Source: a virus
Taxonomy: Duplodnaviria > Heunggongvirae > Uroviricota > Caudoviricetes
Length of the DNA stretch: 8,716 nt
Direction: 5' to 3' (one strand)
IMG/VR virus record: IMGVR_UViG_2579778956_000003
Coordinates: 1-8,716 of that record
The notes under the pieces were generated by a model, which had not been told where the DNA came from, did no database searches, and saw only the letters and a list, made by a program, of their open reading frames with translations. The position numbers and the translations under genes were made by a program. Numbering within the stretch: the stretch's first letter is position 1; each line of letters begins with the position of its first letter. Shown here in pieces: positions 1-8,716 of the stretch.

Positions 1-1818
1 TTATCTTGCGTTTATTGATATATCAAAGAATGCGTTTCCTGTATTAAACATGTTTTGTTTTATATCGTCTGATGCTCCAGCTCTAAATATTCTCCTGAAA
101 TATATCCTTCCATCTGCCACATAAGGCTCTACGGCAAAAAGATTGGTATCTGATCTTATTGAGGTTGTAAGATTATTTGTTATTGAGCCAACAGCACTAC
201 CTGCTATTGTTGATAGGTAAGGAGGTAGTTGAATGTAAAATGTATCTCCTGAAGAATTATTAGTTATATTGCATGTTATAACTACACGTCCAATTACGGT
301 TTTTTGTAAAATATTATGCGTATATGACTGATTTGTATATGTACACGGTATATTTACTGTTGGCTTGTAGCTACCGCTTGCGATTGGATACAAATATGTA
401 GATTGCATATTTCCACCATAAACATAGTTGTTTAGCGGGCTTGCCGAATCTGTAAATGTGAAAAATCCATCATCTTCAATGTATGCATAATCACCTATTA
501 AGGGGCTAATAAAGGTATTCTCAGAACCAGATATCAGAAAAACCTTACCATATTTCAAGCCACAATCCTGATGAGATAGGTTCCTAGGTGATAAAAATGT
601 GTTGTTAAAACCAGAAATTACATAACCAATCCCTCCATTTGTAATACTGGCTGCTTGTGTTTTGTTTATTTTTTTCGGTGAGTCAGAATAGAATTGCACT
701 ACGTTATTACCACTACCGCTCATTTTAAGGCCGAATAACATATTACGAGTGGTTCTATCTGGTGATGACATTCCCCAGCAGTGGGCCTTTGATACTTGAT
801 TAGCATTTCCAGGCATATCAAGTCCAGTAGTATATCCTGAAACTATAACGTTAGAATAAAATGAATCTGACGTTTCATGTCTAATTCCTGCATAATCATG
901 AGAGTTATTTTGATCAAAAGGTGCAATGATTGAAATGTTTGATATGTTCCATCCATACCCCTTAACAATCTTAATTCCTCCCCTTCTCATGTTGAATGTT
1001 CTTAATCTTGATATGATCGGATCCACTCCATCAGTACCAAGAATACCAACAGCATCTATTACAGAGTCAGGGGCAATATATAGACCATCAATATGAACTC
1101 TATCACCTGTATCTATTGCCGTTATTCCATCATTGTAAGGATCCCTCCACGCGTCGTCTTTTACCTCAATAACAACATCATCTGAAAAGTCACGGGGTTT
1201 TATTTCTCCGAGATGCGTGACTCGTGAACCTGATTTATGAATAAGTCTTTCAGTTATACAACTTTTACCTACAAAAATAATATCTCTTTTGTTATCAGCA
1301 GACCAGTCAAGAGCAGTTTGATTTGCTATTGTATCATCAGTTACACCATCACATTTCGCACCAAAATATTTATTTGTAGGAATGTCTTTTAGAATGTCGC
1401 CAACGCTTCTAACAATGAATGGAGCTGATCCAGTCATGACTATGTCAGCACCAGAACTACTCTCAAGCTGTTGCCTTAACTGATCTGGGTCGTATTTTGC
1501 AATGTCAGGGAAGTAGAACTGCTGCGATCCATAGGCGTCGTAAACAGCCATGCTGTAATTCTGCACAGTAACGAACTTTGATATCTGCCCGTTGTAAACA
1601 GGATACCCACCCGCGTTAATAACTATCGGCTGAGCAGTTGGAATCAGATCTCCAGTTTCACTTTCAATATAAACAGGGATTTGATTCGCTGGGATTGTAG
1701 GATCGGTATCTGGTAGCCCAAGATAGATTTTACCGTTGGCATTTGCTTTAAATGAGCGTGCCAGCGTGAAAAGCTGCGCAGGCATCCCTACCACTAAGTT
1801 TGCGGTGATATCTGACAT
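1..1818 (-). CDS. Tailspike protein (P22 gp9-like N-terminal head-binding domain, divergent receptor-binding domain); 605 aa, stop codon at 1..3
   Basis: The N-terminus [34 protein letters not shown]...[10 protein letters not shown]...[10 protein letters not shown]...KYDPDQ closely matches the P22 tailspike head-binding domain as I recall it. The first Met of the tracked ORF (1866) adds 16 residues with no RBS; the ATG at 1818 is preceded by GGAG with a 7 nt spacer. The rest is Gly/Asn/Ser/Thr-rich as expected for a beta-helix receptor-binding domain. Confidence 0.9.
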
Positions 1819-1843
1819 TTCATTACTCCAAACGAATGATATG

Positions 1844-1866
1844 ATGCAACCATGATGTGATTGCAT
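1844..1866. promoter_or_regulatory. Near-perfect inverted repeat ATGCAACCA-N5-TGATTGCAT in the divergent tailspike/mnt intergenic region; candidate Mnt operator
   Basis: The two 9 bp arms match at 8 of 9 positions around a 5 bp spacer. It sits 26-48 bp upstream of the tailspike ATG and about 75 bp upstream of the mnt ATG. Ribbon-helix-helix repressors such as Mnt bind dyad operators of this size. Promoter hexamers could not be assigned with confidence. Confidence 0.35.
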
Positions 1867-1939
1867 ACCGAAATGGTACTATTGAGTATTTATCCAGTAG
1901 GTTACGATGCCATTCCACCCAACTGGTGAGGCATCAAGG

Positions 1940-2200
1940 ATGTACAGCAAATACGACGAGGCGCAGTTTCACTTGAGACTTCCGCATGAACTCCACGAGA
2001 AAATTAAACAGCGCGCGAAGATGAATAACAGGTCGCTGAACTCTGAGATAATTGCAGCGATTGAAGAATCATTGACTAAACAAAGCTCTGCATCAGTTTA
2101 CATTGACGATGCAGAGCGTATGGCAGAACAACAATCTGATATGGTTAAGAAAATTGTCTTTGATACGCTCAAGGAGCTATATAAAAAAGACAGCAACTAA
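1940..2200 (+). CDS. mnt: Mnt-like ribbon-helix-helix repressor (Arc/Mnt family), 86 aa
   Basis: The protein aligns over its whole length with P22 Mnt as I recall it: FHLRLPHELHEKIKQRAKMNNRSLNSEII versus FNFRMPMEVREKLKFRAEANGRSMNSELL, and C-terminal DDAERMAEQQSDMVKKIVFDTLKELYKK versus NDAERLADEQSELVKKMVFDTLKDLYKK. The start at 1940 is chosen because GGTGAGG lies 8 nt upstream; the tracked ATG at 1907 would add an 11-residue extension ahead of the DNA-binding strand. Confidence 0.85.
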   Translation: MYSKYDEAQFHLRLPHELHEKIKQRAKMNNRSLNSEIIAAIEESLTKQSSASVYIDDAERMAEQQSDMVKKIVFDTLKELYKKDSN

Positions 2201-2220
2201 CCATCCATTACGGAGGATTT

Positions 2221-2298
2221 ATGCAAAGAGATATGATGAATATTGCATTCTACATATTTGGTTTTTGCACTTTCCTGGTATTTGCAAAGCTATTCTGA
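2221..2298 (+). CDS. Hypothetical 25 aa hydrophobic peptide (MQRDMMNIAFYIFGFCTFLVFAKLF) just downstream of mnt
   Basis: GGAGG at 2212..2216 lies 4 nt upstream of the ATG at 2221. The product is a single predicted transmembrane helix. It is below the ORF-track length cut-off and its last codons overlap the convergent 3' end of the gp16-like gene. Confidence 0.25.
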   Translation: MQRDMMNIAFYIFGFCTFLVFAKLF

Positions 2299-4683
2299 CA
2301 ACGCATCAGACTTAGCCCCCTGCGTCAGAGCGTTAATTGTATTTTGTGCCTGCTGCATTGCTTTCTCAAAGGCTGTTGATCCGCGTGGGGTGTTTGCCAT
2401 TCGGAGCATTGCATTTCTGAATGGCTCGCTCTCATAGGCGCGAGTAAGAAGTCCGTAGCTTACTGCTGCGCCAGTTGTCGCCGGGTTCATTGCCGTCCCA
2501 TACCCAATAATGAACGGGATAGTTTGCTGTCCTGTGGGTGTTGTTACTGCCGCTTTTGCAGCCTGCTGCGTGGATTGCAGGTAGTTTTTCAATCCTTTCA
2601 GATAAGCAGCGTCCTGCCCCTTAAATGTGATGCCAGTCTGGTTTTGCAGGATGTTAAGCTGCCGAAGGAACTGGTCAGGGGATCCGCCAGATTTCTCCAT
2701 CGCCTTTCCAATGATGCCATTGCGCATTTGCGCCCTGCCAACACGACCAACTGAGTTATACAGCGTCTTAATTTCAGATTTGTTCTTGCTGAATAGCATG
2801 TTGTTGACAACTTCCGGCGTCAGATCGCCTTTCATGAGAACATTCTTCAGCCTGGTATTCTTTAGTTTCTCTGCTTCGTCAGCGTAGACGGCATTGGCCT
2901 GCTGATATTTACGGAGAGTATCGTTGCCAAGATTCTGACCAATGGCACCATTGATATCGTCGGTCATTGCCTTGTAAACGCGCTGAATGGCGGCATCGGA
3001 ACGGTTTGGTAACACTGGTCGCTCACCCTTCACGTCCATTCTGAACTGGCTGCGCAGGTCACTTAATTGCTTCAAATCCAGATTTACCGGACCATCAGGG
3101 CCAGCATTGCGAACAAGCTCATCACGATATGACTGAAGTTTTGAAATAGTCTCGTTATCAGCAACCTTACCAAGCTTCTGCAGGTTAGATATTTCTGTAT
3201 CAATCTGCTGAATTGCTCGCACAGGCTGAATGTTTACTCCAGCCATAGCATTCTGAACCTGCTCCAGTCGATTACCGGCGGCACGACGAATTCCTGATGT
3301 TTTCGCCTTAAGGCTGTCAATAACAACCGCTGGATCATACTCACCGAATTTATCGGCAAATCTCTGCACCAACTGGCTTCTCGCTTCCTGTTGCGTTGCT
3401 CTCATTCCGCTTGTGCCAGCCAGGGGGATATTTTCTGCTGTAGTCTGCGCCATTTTCCCGACGCGGGAAGTAGGCTGTAACAGGTCTGTGGTGTGCAGAG
3501 GAACTCCTTCACGCTCTGCAAACCTGATAGCCTGTTGAGCTTCTGGTGCTATCGAACCACGAACACCACGATAAGCAGCACCTAATCCACGTCCGGCAGC
3601 GTTAATAGCACCGCCAGCCAGCACACCAACGCCTAAATCGGTGGCGAGTGCTTCCGCATCATCTTTCGCACTGTTTGCAGCAAGTGATCCAACTGCGTTT
3701 TCTGCTAGAAGGCGAGTTGCCCCCTGAGCAATTCGACCAGCAAGTGTTGGTGCCTGTGTTGCCGCTCTCTCAACGCCAGCAGGAGTGAGGTAAGGCAATG
3801 CTTCGGCAAATACCCTTCCCTCTGTCGTTTGTGGAGTCAGCGCGCCTTGCTGAAGGCCAAAGTCCTGCTCTAATCCCTGCGTTGTTACTCGTGGTGCTGG
3901 TTGATATGTACCATCGCCAATGCCGAGTTTACCGCCAGCCCAAGCCGCCGCGCTTGTTACAGCATCAGTGAGTTCAGCAGGTATGTTCGCTACGTTGATT
4001 CCTGCCTGTAGTAAGCCGCGCCCGGTTTCAGCAAGTCCATTACCAAGGTCAGACATTATTCCGCCTTGCTGCTGAACAGGTTTCGGTGCGACAGAACTTA
4101 CGGGTTGAGGTGGCTGCTGACTGGCTGCCTGCTGCTCAATCTGAGCAAATGGATTATTTGGGTCTGACTGCACGCCTGATGCCGATACTTGTTCGGATGA
4201 CTGTGCTTCCAGTTGTGCAAACGGGTTGTTAGGGTCTTGCTGAGGATGTACCTTTGCAGAGGTGGCGCGCTGTTCGACTGTTGAGTCTGTCACCGGGTCA
4301 CCCGCCCATTGAGCAAAGCGATCATCAACGTAACCGCGGCCTTCAGGTCCTGGCGTATATTCACCACGCTTTGCCTTCATAACGTTGCCGGGACCGTCGT
4401 GATAAGCCTGAAGAGCGTCACGCCAGTTACCAAACTGCTGGTACATCTTTGCCAGATAGCGCGCGCCAGCGTCAGCCTGATATTCGGGGTTTTGCATTTG
4501 CTCATCGGTATAACCCATATCACGCCATGTCCCAGGCATGACCTGAGTCAATCCTACAGCCCCGGCGGAGCTTACTGCGGCAGGGTTGTAAGAAGACTCC
4601 TTGGCACCCAGTGCAGTCATCAACCCTTCTGGCACACCGTAACGTGCGCCAGCCTGCTCTAACAAATCACGGTAATTAGCCAT
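2290..4683 (-). CDS. DNA-ejection / internal virion protein (P22 gp16 position) with N-terminal lytic transglycosylase (SLT) domain, 797 aa
   Basis: The N-terminal ~110 residues carry SLT family hallmarks: GAKESSYNPAAVSSAGAVGLTQVMPGTW ... AGARYLAKMY ... ALQAYHDGPGN. It is the last of three tightly packed genes between gene 10 and the tailspike, and its ATG directly abuts the upstream TAA. A Gln/Ala/Gly-rich linker contains a duplicated DPNNPFAQ(L/I)E motif. Confidence 0.85.
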   Translation of the reverse strand: MANYRDLLEQAGARYGVPEGLMTALGAKESSYNPAAVSSAGAVGLTQVMPGTWRDMGYTDEQMQNPEYQADAGARYLAKMYQQFGNWRDALQAYHDGPGNVMKAKRGEYTPGPEGRGYVDDRFAQWAGDPVTDSTVEQRATSAKVHPQQDPNNPFAQLEAQSSEQVSASGVQSDPNNPFAQIEQQAASQQPPQPVSSVAPKPVQQQGGIMSDLGNGLAETGRGLLQAGINVANIPAELTDAVTSAAAWAGGKLGIGDGTYQPAPRVTTQGLEQDFGLQQGALTPQTTEGRVFAEALPYLTPAGVERAATQAPTLAGRIAQGATRLLAENAVGSLAANSAKDDAEALATDLGVGVLAGGAINAAGRGLGAAYRGVRGSIAPEAQQAIRFAEREGVPLHTTDLLQPTSRVGKMAQTTAENIPLAGTSGMRATQQEARSQLVQRFADKFGEYDPAVVIDSLKAKTSGIRRAAGNRLEQVQNAMAGVNIQPVRAIQQIDTEISNLQKLGKVADNETISKLQSYRDELVRNAGPDGPVNLDLKQLSDLRSQFRMDVKGERPVLPNRSDAAIQRVYKAMTDDINGAIGQNLGNDTLRKYQQANAVYADEAEKLKNTRLKNVLMKGDLTPEVVNNMLFSKNKSEIKTLYNSVGRVGRAQMRNGIIGKAMEKSGGSPDQFLRQLNILQNQTGITFKGQDAAYLKGLKNYLQSTQQAAKAAVTTPTGQQTIPFIIGYGTAMNPATTGAAVSYGLLTRAYESEPFRNAMLRMANTPRGSTAFEKAMQQAQNTINALTQGAKSDALSE
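4135..4236 (-). repeat. Duplicated 10-residue motif DPNNPFAQ(L/I)E inside the gp16-like protein (nt 4207..4236 and 4135..4164)
   Basis: Both copies translate to the same peptide but use different synonymous codons (gaccctaacaacccgtttgcacaactggaa versus gacccaaataatccatttgctcagattgag), which argues for conservation at the protein level. Confidence 0.6.
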
Positions 4684-6015
4684 TTACTGCCCCAAAGATG
4701 GAAGATATCCGTAGCGATTAATGAAGTCGATTGACAGCTCGGGGTGCTGCTTCAGGTAATCTATAGAAGCCTGAGGCGCTTCCACTCGCTTGATACCGTT
4801 TTGCTGAACGTACTTACCAACCGCCTCATTACGCTTCTGGTTGAGCGTGTTCAGGATGACGCCAGCGTTGCGACGAAAGGACTCCTCGCTCTGCGAGTTC
4901 TGCAGCGAACCAACAGCCTGGTCGAGCTTTTTGCCCTCGGCATCAGAAAGTGCGCCCATGCCTCGCATGGCCTGAACCGCTGTCAGGTATGCTTGTGATT
5001 TAAAGGTATCAAGTCGTGCCTGAGTGTCTGCAGCCTGTGAGCCTGGAACGTTGGGGATTACTCCACGTAAGCCTGTAATGCTCTTAAGTGAAGGAGAACT
5101 AACGATATCGTTCAGAGTGAACATGCTGGTTGTGAGGGTGTTGATGCCGTCTTTGTAGCCATCATTTAGCGCTTGCTGCTTCTGCTGCAACTGCTGGTTG
5201 TTGGCTGCTATGCGGCTCTGTATTTCCTGGCGCTTCAGGTCGTTAGTTTCTGCTGATAGCATCCGGTCAAGGCGCTTATTTTCGTTGTTAATGCGGTTTG
5301 TTTCTGCGTCCAGATTAATGCGCTGCTGACCTAAATTCGCCTGGATATCTTGCCCGCGCATTGTGATTGCCTGATTCCGAGCGGCGGTTTGCGAATCCAG
5401 GTCCTGACCGCGCATGGTAACCTGGCGGCCCTGCATTTTATCCTGTAGGTCAAAGTATTTTTCGGGTCCGAGACTGTTCATCCCCAGGTGATCGACAAAT
5501 TCGCCGAACTGCCGCGGGTTCTGTTGGTACATCTGAGCGACGTCCTGAGGATTAACGCCAACACGAGCTAACTCACCGGCGTTGTTTTGCAGCCATGATT
5601 GCATTGCTTCTGGAGACGATGACGCAAGGCGTGCGCCAGCCGCTAAGGTGCCGATAGAATTACGCTGGTCTTCATCAATGAATCCCATGCCTTTACGAAC
5701 AGATTCAATCTGGTCTGGATATTGAGTAGCCAACTGACGCAAAGCACCGCGATCACCAGACGCATAAGCATTAGCGTATGCCTGCTGAAATTCTTTCTGC
5801 CGCTGAGCCTGCTTTTCCTGCTGAAACACCCCCGCAATACCTGAAAGGCCTTGCAAAGCAGTCAGCCCAACATTGTTAGCGCCTGAACGCTCAATATCAT
5901 TGTTCTGCCTGATAAGCTGAAGCGTATTGCCGATGTCATTTACGCTCGGAGCGTTTGAGTTGACGCCGCCGATACCAGCCAATAATCCGCCATTTAATCC
6001 TTGCCAAGTAGCCAT
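4684..6015 (-). CDS. DNA-ejection protein (P22 gp20 position), 443 aa
   Basis: This is the middle of the three ejection-protein genes, with size close to P22 gp20 (about 470 aa as I recall). It is Gln/Asn/Ala-rich with coiled-coil-like segments, starts 6 nt after the gp7-like stop behind a GGGG RBS, and its stop TAA abuts the gp16-like ATG. Confidence 0.8.
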   Translation of the reverse strand: MATWQGLNGGLLAGIGGVNSNAPSVNDIGNTLQLIRQNNDIERSGANNVGLTALQGLSGIAGVFQQEKQAQRQKEFQQAYANAYASGDRGALRQLATQYPDQIESVRKGMGFIDEDQRNSIGTLAAGARLASSSPEAMQSWLQNNAGELARVGVNPQDVAQMYQQNPRQFGEFVDHLGMNSLGPEKYFDLQDKMQGRQVTMRGQDLDSQTAARNQAITMRGQDIQANLGQQRINLDAETNRINNENKRLDRMLSAETNDLKRQEIQSRIAANNQQLQQKQQALNDGYKDGINTLTTSMFTLNDIVSSPSLKSITGLRGVIPNVPGSQAADTQARLDTFKSQAYLTAVQAMRGMGALSDAEGKKLDQAVGSLQNSQSEESFRRNAGVILNTLNQKRNEAVGKYVQQNGIKRVEAPQASIDYLKQHPELSIDFINRYGYLPSLGQ

Positions 6016-6024
6016 GATTACCCC

Positions 6025-6717
6025 TTAAAACAACGAGCCAAGCAATCCGATACCAGCACCAATGCCAGCACCCCAAGGTGTTGATGTTCCCAAAAGGCTG
6101 GCAAGACCTGCACCGGCAATCGCACCAGACGTTCCGCCACTAATTGCTGTCTGAAGACTTGATGGTTTGTTGGCATTAGCAGCGGCAAGAGCTGCGCTTT
6201 GCTGTGCAATGCTGCTCATGTTGTTGGCGTACGTCTGCCCGGCGTTTGCCTGACCTTGCAGAGCACCAAGCCCAACGTTTGCCAGATTGTTGTAATTGCT
6301 CATCTGGTTTGATAACCAAGACTGACCGAGAGTCGGCGCGATCGTAGCCAGTTGATTGCTTGTGGCTGTCGAACCAAGTCCACCCGTCGCCTCCGCAGCA
6401 GCAAGACTCTGGTAACGCGCCTGACCTGCAAGGTCTTTATACTGCTGAGAGTTGTAATACTGATTAAGTGCCTGCCCCTGACCTTCTAAACTGGAAAGAT
6501 TCTGCAACTGGTTAACATACTGCTCCGCAAGAGGCGTGAACGGAGCAAGGTTTTTCATGATCGTCTGCCACTGCTGATTTTGCAGGTCTGCTGCATACTT
6601 CTGAGCTTCTGCGGCATACTTTGCGCTTTTATCAGAACTGCCACCTTTCCCACCCTTTTCAGGGCAATAAGGTTCCTCGCCGCGCAGTTTTCTGCCCAGC
6701 TTAAATGCATATAACAT
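6025..6717 (-). CDS. DNA-ejection protein (P22 gp7 position), 230 aa
   Basis: Length is almost identical to P22 gp7 (about 229 aa as I recall). The N-terminus MLYAFKLGRKLRGEEP is followed by low-complexity Gly/Ala/Gln/Ser-rich sequence. A GGGAGA RBS lies 5 nt upstream, and the start sits 2 nt after the stop of the upstream ORF. Confidence 0.8.
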   Translation of the reverse strand: MLYAFKLGRKLRGEEPYCPEKGGKGGSSDKSAKYAAEAQKYAADLQNQQWQTIMKNLAPFTPLAEQYVNQLQNLSSLEGQGQALNQYYNSQQYKDLAGQARYQSLAAAEATGGLGSTATSNQLATIAPTLGQSWLSNQMSNYNNLANVGLGALQGQANAGQTYANNMSSIAQQSAALAAANANKPSSLQTAISGGTSGAIAGAGLASLLGTSTPWGAGIGAGIGLLGSLF

Positions 6718-6719
6718 GG

Positions 6720-7091
6720 CTATCTCCCGTGATTCAGGAAGTCGATTAGTTCTTCGCGTGTGGCGCTGTAAAAAGTCACGTCATCCACGCCTTTGAAGTA
6801 TTTCTTGATGGTTCCTACTCGCTTAAGGCCAATCATTGCGCAGTACATCTGACCGTGGCGGAATTTGCGTGCAGCGAACGATGTGACGCACTGAACGGTG
6901 GTGTTAGTCAGAATGTATCGCCAGAACGCCAGCCCGATTTCCTTGCTGAATCCACGAATCTCTGGCAGGTACATGGCGTGGCAATCAAAGGTTAGCGGCT
7001 GAATCTCCTGATAGTAAACAATTCCGCCGAACTGCCCGTGCACGTTCACCTCAAAGTAACGGCATACAGTCCTGTTTTCAACACACACCAT
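6720..7091 (-). pseudogene. 3' remnant of the gene preceding gp7 (gene-14 position in P22), out of frame with the gp10-like ORF; alternatively a small independent ORF starting at GTG 7043 (107 aa)
   Basis: The reading frame ends 2 nt before the gp7-like ATG, with the gp7 RBS inside its last codons, as expected for the authentic 3' end of a late gene. Its 5' end overlaps the end of the gp10-like ORF in a different frame. A possible restart signal (GAGG, 5 nt spacer, GTG at 7043, overlapping the upstream TGA) exists but may be fortuitous. Confidence 0.35.
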
Positions 7092-8110
7092 TGCGGACCA
7101 TTGGCGCTTGAAGATGCGTCGTACACGAGAACATGGCGCGCAAGATGGATAATCAGCAACTCATGCGCATCAAATCGCAGAGACTCCATCACGCCATCAG
7201 CCAGTTCATCAGCAGTGTAGGAGCGTAGTATTTTCTCAATGCTCGCGCTGGCGATTGGTGATACCTGACCAGAGCCGATGATATACACAGACGGCGCACC
7301 TGTTGCCGGATTGCTGATGAACGCATACGAATCAGCGAACTGCGTTTTGCAGTAGGTTCCAGCGATACCTTTCTGCACCATTAACGATGGCTGGGCGACA
7401 TACAAAGCAGCACCAACGGTGGTTGCGCCAGTCAGGGAGAAATATTCAATCGTCGATGAACCAAAGCAGACGATAAAGTCTCGCCATGTACCTATGCCGA
7501 TGATGCCGTCAGGCTGCGATTCTGCACGATATTGTGCGCTGTAGCGGTCAGGGTGCGATTCGTCTTCAAGGTCAGTGATAAACCATGAATCAGTACCGTC
7601 TTTTGACCACGCATAACGCCCACGTAAGCGCGTAATGTCGCGAACTGAACCTAACTCATACTGCGTAAAACCGCTGTCTGCAGGCCAGTTTGATACGGTT
7701 TTAACCGTGCCATCATAGCGATACTCGACCAGTTGACCATTAACGCCTACAGCCTGAGATGTTCGACCATGCGCCATTGATACGCGGCCACTTCCGGCGA
7801 CGTCACCGACTTCGCTTTCGCCCTTATACAGCTTGCCACCACACACGCGATAAACAGCATTCTGCGCCATGTTGTACTCGACGCCTCGCGATACGCCGTT
7901 CACATCAGAACGTTTGGCAATGCCCGGGAATGAGCGAAGATATCCGCTGCTGTTCAGGATTTCTTTGGGTGTAGCCAACATATTCACTGGCAGATAGTCG
8001 ATATAGTCGGCGTTTCGAAAGTCTTTGCCGACACCTTTCATAAGCGGAAGTTGCTGAACCTTGAGGCTAAATGCGCGAAGATGGCTGCTGAAAATACCTC
8101 GCTTAAGCAA
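7046..8110 (-). pseudogene. Tail hub / packaged-DNA stabilisation protein (P22 gp10-like), lacking its C-terminal ~125 residues and probably its native start
   Basis: The region from LPLMKGVGKDFRNADYIDYLPVNMLATPKEILNSSGYLRSFPGI to QWCVLKTGLY matches my recollection of P22 gp10 residues ~9-345 at high identity. Similarity stops after TGLY, followed by AVTLR and a stop, whereas gp10 is about 472 aa. The tracked start is a TTG at 8110 with no RBS, the first ATG (8041) also lacks an RBS, and the 5' end overlaps a plus-strand gene. Confidence 0.6.
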
Positions 8111-8365
8111 TCTGAGAAGGAATTTAATGACTTTTGTCGTGAGGAGTTTAGCGAATGGGAAGATGATGTTACTGAAACCCCAGCCACCGATGCTTTCCTG
8201 GCTGAAGTACGGGCGCAGGGGGTAGAGATGTACGCAGATAACCTCGACAACGGAGCAGACGACGCAGAACGAGGTGGTTTTGATTATGCCGTTAAGTTTC
8301 TACGCAGTGAAGCGTCTAGTGTACGTTTGTTCGCCGACCAGCTTCGCAAAGGAGGCAACCAGTGA
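8081..8365 (+). CDS. Hypothetical acidic protein (about 94 aa from ATG 8081; start uncertain, possibly 5'-truncated)
   Basis: The ORF has roughly 22 Asp/Glu against 10 Lys/Arg. No convincing RBS precedes the ATG at 8081 or the TTG at 8051, while an internal ATG at 8228 has GGGGG 5 nt upstream. Its stop overlaps the GTG of the next ORF (GTGA), suggesting coupled translation. It is on the same strand as the downstream AlpA-like gene. Confidence 0.4.
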   Translation: MAAENTSLKQSEKEFNDFCREEFSEWEDDVTETPATDAFLAEVRAQGVEMYADNLDNGADDAERGGFDYAVKFLRSEASSVRLFADQLRKGGNQ

Positions 8366-8481
8366 GCAAGATTGACTATCAGGAACTGCGTGAGATAGCA
8401 AAGCACCAGAGACTTACAGAAGAATCAGCGAGCTACGCAAGGACTAACGCCTCACACTCGATGAGGCCTGTACATATCTGA
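8362..8481 (+). CDS. Hypothetical 39 aa protein (MSKIDYQELREIAKHQRLTEESASYARTNASHSMRPVHI), translationally coupled to the upstream ORF
   Basis: GGAGG at 8351..8355 lies 6 nt upstream of the GTG at 8362, which overlaps the upstream stop codon. The ORF is below the ORF-track length cut-off and ends just before a terminator-like hairpin. Confidence 0.3.
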   Translation: MSKIDYQELREIAKHQRLTEESASYARTNASHSMRPVHI

Positions 8482-8484
8482 TAG

Positions 8485-8510
8485 AGCCGCTATATGGCGG
8501 TTTCTTTTTT
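8485..8510 (+). terminator. Candidate intrinsic terminator (short GC stem AGCCGCT / GGCGGTT with ATAT loop, followed by a T-rich run TTTCTTTTTT)
   Basis: The hairpin and T-tract lie 4 nt after the stop of the 39-codon ORF and about 15 nt before the RBS of the AlpA-like gene. The stem is short and includes G-U pairs. Confidence 0.3.
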
Positions 8511-8524
8511 CCTGGAGAATTAAG

Positions 8525-8716
8525 ATGACCGATACCAGCCTGATTCCTGAGAAAGAAGTGATGAACAAGCTCGGTGTTTCATCACGTCAGACAATCTGGA
8601 ACTATACCAAACGGCACGGATTTCCGAAGCCAGTCAGAACCCACCCCAAATCATACCTTCGTGAAGCTGTTGAAGGGTGGATTCTTAACGGTGGCGTTAA
8701 TCAGAAATGCTCCTGA
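8525..8716 (+). CDS. AlpA-family phage regulatory protein / excisionase-like DNA-binding protein, 63 aa (complete; stop at 8714..8716)
   Basis: The sequence KEVMNKLGVSSRQTIWNYTKRHGFPKPVR...PKSYLREAVEGWI fits the AlpA/Xis-type helix-turn-helix signature (L-G-V/L-S-x-x-T-I/L ... FPKP ... W-x-x-x-E-V-x-x-W-I). GGAG lies 7 nt upstream of the ATG. Its orientation, opposite to the late genes and reading away from them, is what a prophage xis gene pointing toward int would show. Confidence 0.75.
   Translation: MTDTSLIPEKEVMNKLGVSSRQTIWNYTKRHGFPKPVRTHPKSYLREAVEGWILNGGVNQKCS

Follow-up and report, generated by a model that had tools for sequence, protein, structure and literature searches.

In phage P22, the gene sieA lies tail to tail with gene 16, 22 nucleotides (nt) away from it and antisense to the late operon, within the variable 'ant moron'. 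Its product is a polytopic inner-membrane protein of ~164 amino acids (aa) that is expressed from the prophage. Mutations that escape SieA map to the C-terminal regions of gp16 and gp20, and phage-borne sieA has been reported only in Salmonella phages (PMC10883804). A comparative study of P22-like phages reports that Sf6 lacks the ant moron (PMC2629481). Here we analyse an 8,716-nt stretch of DNA (IMG/VR record IMGVR_UViG_2579778956_000003, positions 1 to 8,716; hereafter the window), which belongs to an E. coli prophage of the P22/Sf6 type (P22-like, Lederbergvirus), and within it a 25-codon open reading frame (ORF) in the sieA position. Comparison with related loci leads us to a probability of roughly 0.7 that this ORF is a real, unannotated accessory gene whose product is a small peptide, probably of the inner membrane, expressed from the prophage strand.

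The ORF runs from 2221 to 2298 on the + strand (ATG, 25 codons, TGA) and its product reads MQRDMMNIAFYIFGFCTFLVFAKLF. It shares with sieA the slot beside gene 16 and the orientation, and both products are hydrophobic. SieA is prophage-expressed, and the strand that carries the ORF is transcribed in a lysogen. The two differ in size and build, the ORF product being six times shorter than SieA, with one hydrophobic segment. Their carriers differ as well. The ORF goes with gp16 ends of the Sf6 type, mostly in E. coli and Shigella phages, and a P22-type sieA was absent from all of the ~125 loci whose upstream context was examined.

Bacteria themselves also make membrane proteins of up to 50 aa with a single helix, among them AcrZ, MgtS, MgrB, CydX and KdpF. 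The ORF is like these in its length class, its single hydrophobic helix, its lack of annotation, its conservation together with a Shine-Dalgarno (SD) sequence, and its place as the terminal cistron of an operon. It is unlike them in being phage-borne and limited to one phage module, and it has no homology to AcrZ, MgtS, MgrB, CydX or KdpF. The product belongs to a known kind, the small hydrophobic membrane proteins of phages and bacteria, and to no described sequence family. P22 also has an annotated gene of 25 codons, orf25, between rha and orf80. This gene lies at a different locus and encodes an unrelated hydrophilic product, MSGLDNGLYHRLDIIRFIPSMWGGG.

The original prediction placed the ORF behind a canonical GGAGG, on the same strand as and downstream of mnt, and pointed to superinfection-exclusion functions at this position, between gene 16 and mnt, in P22. 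These assignments are confirmed, with an mnt-like gene upstream (by Pfam), a gene-16-type gene downstream and sieA at this position in P22, and the spacer between the mnt-like gene and the ORF measures 20 nt. The GGAGG (2212 to 2216, + strand) ends 4 nt before the ATG. Its duplex with the anti-SD sequence is predicted at -9.5 kcal/mol, within the top 0.6% of all 20-nt segments in the stretch. Terminator-like sites are missing from the spacer behind the mnt-like gene and from the DNA just past the ORF; the closest candidates, both weak, lie at 2514 and 2566. The prediction also called the region AT-rich, convergent and intergenic. It is convergent, and at 33-35% GC it is AT-rich beside the ejection gene, which has ~50%, but the ORF and this convergent gene meet tail to tail and share 9 nt (2290-2298). 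These hold the last two sense codons and the stop of the ORF and, on the other strand, those of the ejection gene. The ORF is therefore not cleanly intergenic, and this overlap had been missed.

At the start codon, UGCAAAGA (2222-2229) can pair with UUUUUGCA (2262-2269), giving an 8-bp helix in the alignment fold. The helix is maintained mainly through G-U changes and might occlude the start codon, but both its energy and its covariation are negligible.

The peptide has a grand average of hydropathy (GRAVY) of 1.12. Its layout is a variable N-terminus (residues 2-9) followed by a conserved hydrophobic core (residues 10-21). By hydrophobicity it ranks only 6th among the 119 small ORFs of the window, many of which lie on the strand opposite late genes. 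Positions 1500-3000 are overlapped by thirty ORFs of 20 aa or more, and the arrangement GGAGG-N3-9-ATG is found three times in the window where 1.45 would be expected. Judged by this one sequence, the ORF, its SD and its hydrophobicity do not exceed what chance would produce. The verdict must therefore rest on comparison with related loci.

Related loci, ~200 in all, were picked by anchors that leave the body of the ORF unconstrained. The DNA anchor comprised 21 nt at the end of gene 16, the first 9 nt of which lie in the ORF (its last two codons and stop), leaving codons 1-23 free. This anchor yielded 127 loci from IMG/VR, GTDB, the window and reference phages. The frame is open in 125 of them, with an ATG, exactly 25 codons and no indels; the two exceptions are one CTG start and one unrelated sequence. 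The protein anchor was the C-terminal 250 aa of the ejection protein, which is 97-100% identical across all 80 retrieved loci. Here the ORF is intact in 78 of the 79 usable loci, and the remaining locus (L236) carries other DNA instead. Across the ~200 loci, all but two or three have the intact, ATG-started frame of 25 codons. The sequences of Sf6 and VSe13 yield this same frame, with differences that are synonymous and conservative. A degenerate motif scan found true homologs only at Sf6-type gene-16 ends, the rest being AT-rich chance matches. The GTDB matches came from E. coli, E. whittamii and one unrelated 'archaeon' metagenome-assembled genome that lacks the ORF.

Three neighbouring antisense ORFs of similar size served as a negative control. 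They are intact in 17 of 47, 17 of 29 and 26 of 84 haplotypes (31-59%), and they break despite DNA that is more conserved than that of the focal ORF. In the same comparison the focal ORF is intact in 52 of 53 haplotypes, at identities down to 78%. In the phage contig L236 (~3240-3370) the same ejection-gene C-terminus ends in ...ALSW* and unrelated DNA replaces the ORF, so the ORF can be lost. In L164 (225-383) the stop has changed from TGA to AGA, which gives a 52-aa read-through product. On this comparative evidence, conservation in related loci lifts the ORF above chance.

The substitution pattern points to selection on the encoded peptide. Codons 1-23 comprise 55 haplotypes, with pairwise identity down to 65%. 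The ratio of nonsynonymous to synonymous polymorphism (pN/pS) is 0.28 in the proposed frame (+1) and 0.69-1.77 in four other frames. The reverse frame that shares its third positions scores 0.35, yet carries stops in 54 of the 55 haplotypes, and all five alternative frames have stops in some haplotypes. Counted by parsimony on a neighbour-joining tree, 88 substitutions fall on the three codon positions as 26/21/41. Synonymous changes number 35 against 24 expected under random placement (P=0.005), and none of the 88 creates a stop (P=0.049). The codons of the hydrophobic core, 10-23, show 1.07/0.93/2.07 events per site by codon position, and the adjacent ejection gene 0.77/0.51/3.93. These counts indicate purifying selection at the protein level, with the signal concentrated in codons 10-23. 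The original prediction had allowed that the ORF could equally have arisen by chance and had looked to related prophages for frame conservation and synonymous bias. Both are present, and they reject the chance alternative.

Two details of the variation were seen alongside. Codon 22 (2284-2286) switches repeatedly between Ala and Glu, with eight inferred events each at its second and third positions on the joint tree, and both residue states have synonymous variants. Codons 2-9 vary with the class of upstream context.

Four such contexts can be told apart. The ORF follows an mnt-like gene in ~69 loci, the window included, and a lipoprotein gene (phrog_6067) in ~32, VSe13 and Gally among them. 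It stands alone beside the divergent tailspike gene in 22 loci, of which Sf6 is one, and the L108/L038 type has a strongly diverged version of this Sf6-class spacer. The 40 nt ahead of the ORF are 17-38% identical between the class consensuses. From the ATG on, identity is 59-93% over codons 1-9, 83-100% over codons 10-23 and 91-99% in the ejection gene. BLAST matches of the window to Sf6, Gally, VSe13 and other phages start at position 2220, with unrelated DNA upstream. The mosaic boundary thus lies at 2220 to 2221, where similarity to phages with unrelated upstream DNA starts one base before or at the ATG. Because identity jumps at the ATG between context classes, the alignments place the beginning of the conserved unit at the start codon. 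This boundary holds against three unrelated upstream contexts and one strongly diverged one. The phrog_6067 lipoprotein itself is 161 aa long with the lipobox LAGC (L007, 995-1480; L258, 3026-3541), and it has no match in Pfam or PADLOC.

The same conservation could be read at the level of the nucleotides. The 70-80 nt would then be a conserved non-coding flank of the ejection gene, for example an RNA structure or an element through which the late transcript adjusts its read-through to the tailspike gene, and the open frame would be incidental. The segment does always accompany the Sf6-type 3' end of gene 16, the late transcript crosses it on the other strand, and the Sf6-type loci show no promoter and no convincing SD for the ORF. 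The P22 ant moron has moreover been proposed to affect tailspike expression (PMC2629481). Third positions of the ORF vary less than those of gp16 (2.5 vs 3.9 events per site), which leaves room for constraint on the nucleotides. However, folding of the segment is insignificant on both strands (z -0.57 and -1.64), and its RNAalifold consensus of -6.5 kcal/mol comes with essentially no covariation. Rfam returned nothing at E<=1, and a terminator-like site was not found. A non-coding flank also fails to explain the third-position bias, the lack of stops and indels at up to 35% pairwise divergence, the ATG exactly at the homology boundary and the broken control ORFs. We regard this explanation as unlikely.

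Another way to account for an open frame in the sieA position is decay. The ORF could be a remnant, for instance the last transmembrane helix of a lost gene for a SieA-like or other membrane protein, still open and no longer functional. Its N-terminal codons are near neutral, and in a local comparison it aligns best with the last hydrophobic helix of P22 SieA, at a score of 33 that 2% of shuffles attain. That alignment covers the hydrophobic helix only and is not significant as evidence of homology, being a compositionally biased match of 19 residues; the peptide has no Pfam or PHROG match either. Among 5.8 billion protein clusters, no larger protein shares words with the ORF, the L164 read-through variant apart. 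A remnant would not keep its ATG, its exact length and its open frame over ~55 haplotypes and four upstream contexts while the controls break. Of the explanations considered, decay seems to us hardly probable at all. A selected, peptide-coding gene remains the reading we prefer.

Such a gene would be expressed from the strand opposite the late operon, which in P22 carries mnt and sieA. The original prediction suggested expression in lysogeny, and this is supported indirectly by a carrier prophage. E. coli LF82, a Crohn's-associated strain, carries the ORF in its prophage Gally, in the lipoprotein context, and Gally is covered by published RNA sequencing (PMC9928086). The dataset quantifies the gene upstream of the ORF, GALLYPH_13, a lipoprotein gene of the phrog_6067 type that lies on the same strand and ends 24 nt upstream of the ORF. 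In LB, GALLYPH_13 reaches ~70 fragments per kilobase per million against a prophage median of 15.6 (4.5-fold; supplementary tables of PMC9928086). This places it among the most transcribed Gally genes in that medium, and in macrophages it rises by 2.55 log2 (PMC9928086). The convergent ejection gene of Gally stays at background, and mnt is up 40-fold in the LF82 macrophage samples (PMC9928086). Since GALLYPH_13 is transcribed from the Gally prophage, the ORF strand is transcribed in one carrier. We infer that the ORF is co-transcribed with the same-strand gene upstream of it.

Transcription from a lysogen bears on whether the peptide could be a toxin, one of the two roles that the original prediction raised for it. 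Type I toxins (Ibs, ShoB, TisB, Ldr, Hok) are small hydrophobic peptides found on mobile elements, and the ORF product matches the Ibs, ShoB, TisB and Ldr types in size and hydrophobicity. A toxin of this type, or an abortive-infection peptide, would depolarise the membrane, and would be held in check in the lysogen and released on infection or induction. The ORF is indeed prophage-borne and antisense to a long convergent transcript. Yet it lies 20 nt behind a repressor gene, positioned for constitutive co-translation with it, and has a strong, unoccluded SD and no long structured leader, unlike the occluded or structured leaders of type I toxins. It also differs from them in having no conserved promoter for an antisense RNA. 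The only promoter-like site on that strand (2369->2341) is not conserved, its -10 element CAAAAT reading CAAAAG in most loci. The late transcript is the only obvious antisense RNA, and it would be absent in lysogens, when mnt is expected to be on. No match was found in PADLOC or Rfam, and LF82 tolerates transcription of the ORF strand. The arrangement of a type I toxin locus finds no support here, and we consider a toxin quite improbable.

We propose instead that the product of the ORF is a microprotein, most likely located in the inner membrane, in which a short variable N-terminus precedes one conserved hydrophobic helix. The ORF would be read from the strand opposite the late operon, as the prophage-expressed genes mnt and sieA are. 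Where the ejection gene of a P22-like phage has an Sf6-type 3' end, the ORF would be the gene that stays constant, next to gene 16, in the variable ant moron. In the window, the mnt transcript would most likely carry it as a second cistron, with translation starting from the strong SD of the ORF itself. That it is translated, that its product inserts into the membrane and what this product does are inferences.

With regard to function, our leading suggestion is a tentative one. By analogy with SieA, the peptide may protect the prophage from within the inner membrane, by interfering with the conduit through which incoming Sf6-type phages deliver their DNA. Nearly as likely, and also doubtful, is modulation of a host membrane protein, as for known bacterial small membrane proteins. 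More speculative than either is a specific form of the first, in which the peptide would be a minimal exclusion factor, the smallest known, that replaces SieA and blocks the gp7/gp20/gp16 conduit via the adjacent conserved C-terminal region of gp16. We entertain exclusion because the ORF sits in the sieA slot, is tied to one type of gp16 C-terminus, the counterpart of a P22 region to which SieA escape mutations map, and in the loci examined never occurs with a P22-type sieA.

Several points weigh against a membrane-peptide gene at this locus. The start signals are uneven. The original prediction looked for a conserved SD, and it is kept in nearly all of the ~69 loci of the mnt context but falls to background level in the Sf6 type. 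The predicted anti-SD duplex is -9.5 kcal/mol in the mnt type (the window), -9.8 kcal/mol in L038 and a moderate -6.2 kcal/mol in L108. It is a weak -3.9 kcal/mol in the lipoprotein type and -2.8 kcal/mol in the Sf6 type, a background value found for 31% of segments. A sigma-70-like consensus promoter for the ORF was not found in the Sf6 intergenic spacer. For Sf6 itself, the gene call is weakest on these two counts, the background-level SD and the missing promoter. Selection is moderate, with 53 nonsynonymous and 35 synonymous events, and codons 2-9 are near neutral (3.75/2.0/3.5 events per site by codon position). There are also rare loci without the ORF, such as L236.

The peptide and its proposed role raise further points of this kind. 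The original prediction described the product as essentially one transmembrane helix. Its hydrophobicity stands, but at only ~15-18 residues (I8 to F21/F25) the hydrophobic core is short for crossing a membrane. On the Hessa scale a 15-residue core sums to -1.6 kcal/mol, and the values of some variants are 0 or higher. The VSe13-type variant has an Arg in the middle of its hydrophobic stretch. At the 5-fold cut-off applied in the LF82 study, the Gally region was not classed as a moron in LB (PMC9928086). The case for an exclusion function is one of position and analogy only. The sieA slot, the link to the gp16 C-terminus and the non-co-occurrence with sieA could all reflect mere adjacency.

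The ORF region is found in at least 316 of 5426 complete E. coli genomes (~6%), the laboratory strain E. coli W included, and seven sequenced phages carry the ORF, Sf6 among them. It is annotated in none of the genome records inspected; annotation pipelines miss it because it is only 25 codons long. The peptide has no match in Pfam, PHROGs, NCBIfam or PADLOC, and a PDB sequence search returned only a meaningless match at E=1.6. None of six peptide variants was present as an exact match among 15 billion proteins, and the peptide strings did not occur in the papers searched. With the 52-aa read-through variant of L164 as the query, the sole match was that protein itself, 'Uncharacterised protein [Klebsiella pneumoniae]', which is the only member of the ORF family in the protein databases searched. 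The ORF is absent from P22 and L236, a presence/absence polymorphism among syntenic relatives. This polymorphism and the low GC content fit an accessory gene. The presence of the ORF in Sf6 shows that the slot between gene 16 and the tailspike gene of that phage is not empty.

The neighbourhood of the ORF is that of a P22-like late region. By BLAST, positions 1800-2500 of the window are 99.9% identical to strain E2863 and ~97% identical to phage IME10. The mnt-like gene (1940 to 2200, + strand) encodes an Arc-family repressor (Pfam Arc, 5.7e-16; Repressor_Mnt, 3.3e-14; RefSeq WP_000287062.1). This repressor is an orphan, in that neither arc nor ant lies between its gene and the divergent tailspike start (window 1819-2200). 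A consensus scan found no convincing sigma-70 promoter for mnt. The tailspike gene, a late gene on the - strand, starts at 1818 and runs past the left end of the window. On the other side, the gene-16 or Sf6 gene-13-type DNA-ejection gene (2290 to 4683, - strand) is convergent to the ORF and encodes 797 aa, with an N-terminal SLT lytic transglycosylase domain at residues 7-110 (Pfam, 2.8e-25). A DPNNPFAQ[LI]E stretch is present twice in this protein, as a duplication. The protein has 665 aa in other carriers, for example Sf6 gp13 and strain Ec40743.

Additional ejection and needle genes, also on the - strand, make up further late genes of the window. For the near-identical prophage of E2863, the RefSeq annotation has a NUMOD4 domain protein of the homing-endonuclease type in the late operon, directly upstream of the tail-needle gene (L001, 12201-12701); this place corresponds to ~8000-8716 of the window on the - strand. 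Downstream of the tailspike gene, E2863 has an acyltransferase of the O-antigen-modification type, annotated as two adjacent coding sequences (L001, 3008-4041), which suggests that the gene is split or frameshifted.

Sf6 and its relatives are models for DNA ejection and for prophage-encoded protection. The ORF would place a conserved gene where the literature sees the Sf6 region as empty (PMC2629481), and it illustrates concretely what the length cut-offs of gene callers hide. It offers a small, testable candidate for a lysogeny-expressed membrane function at the sieA position. Should the peptide prove to exclude phages by acting on the conduit of ejection proteins, the formation of that conduit could be probed with a very compact tool.

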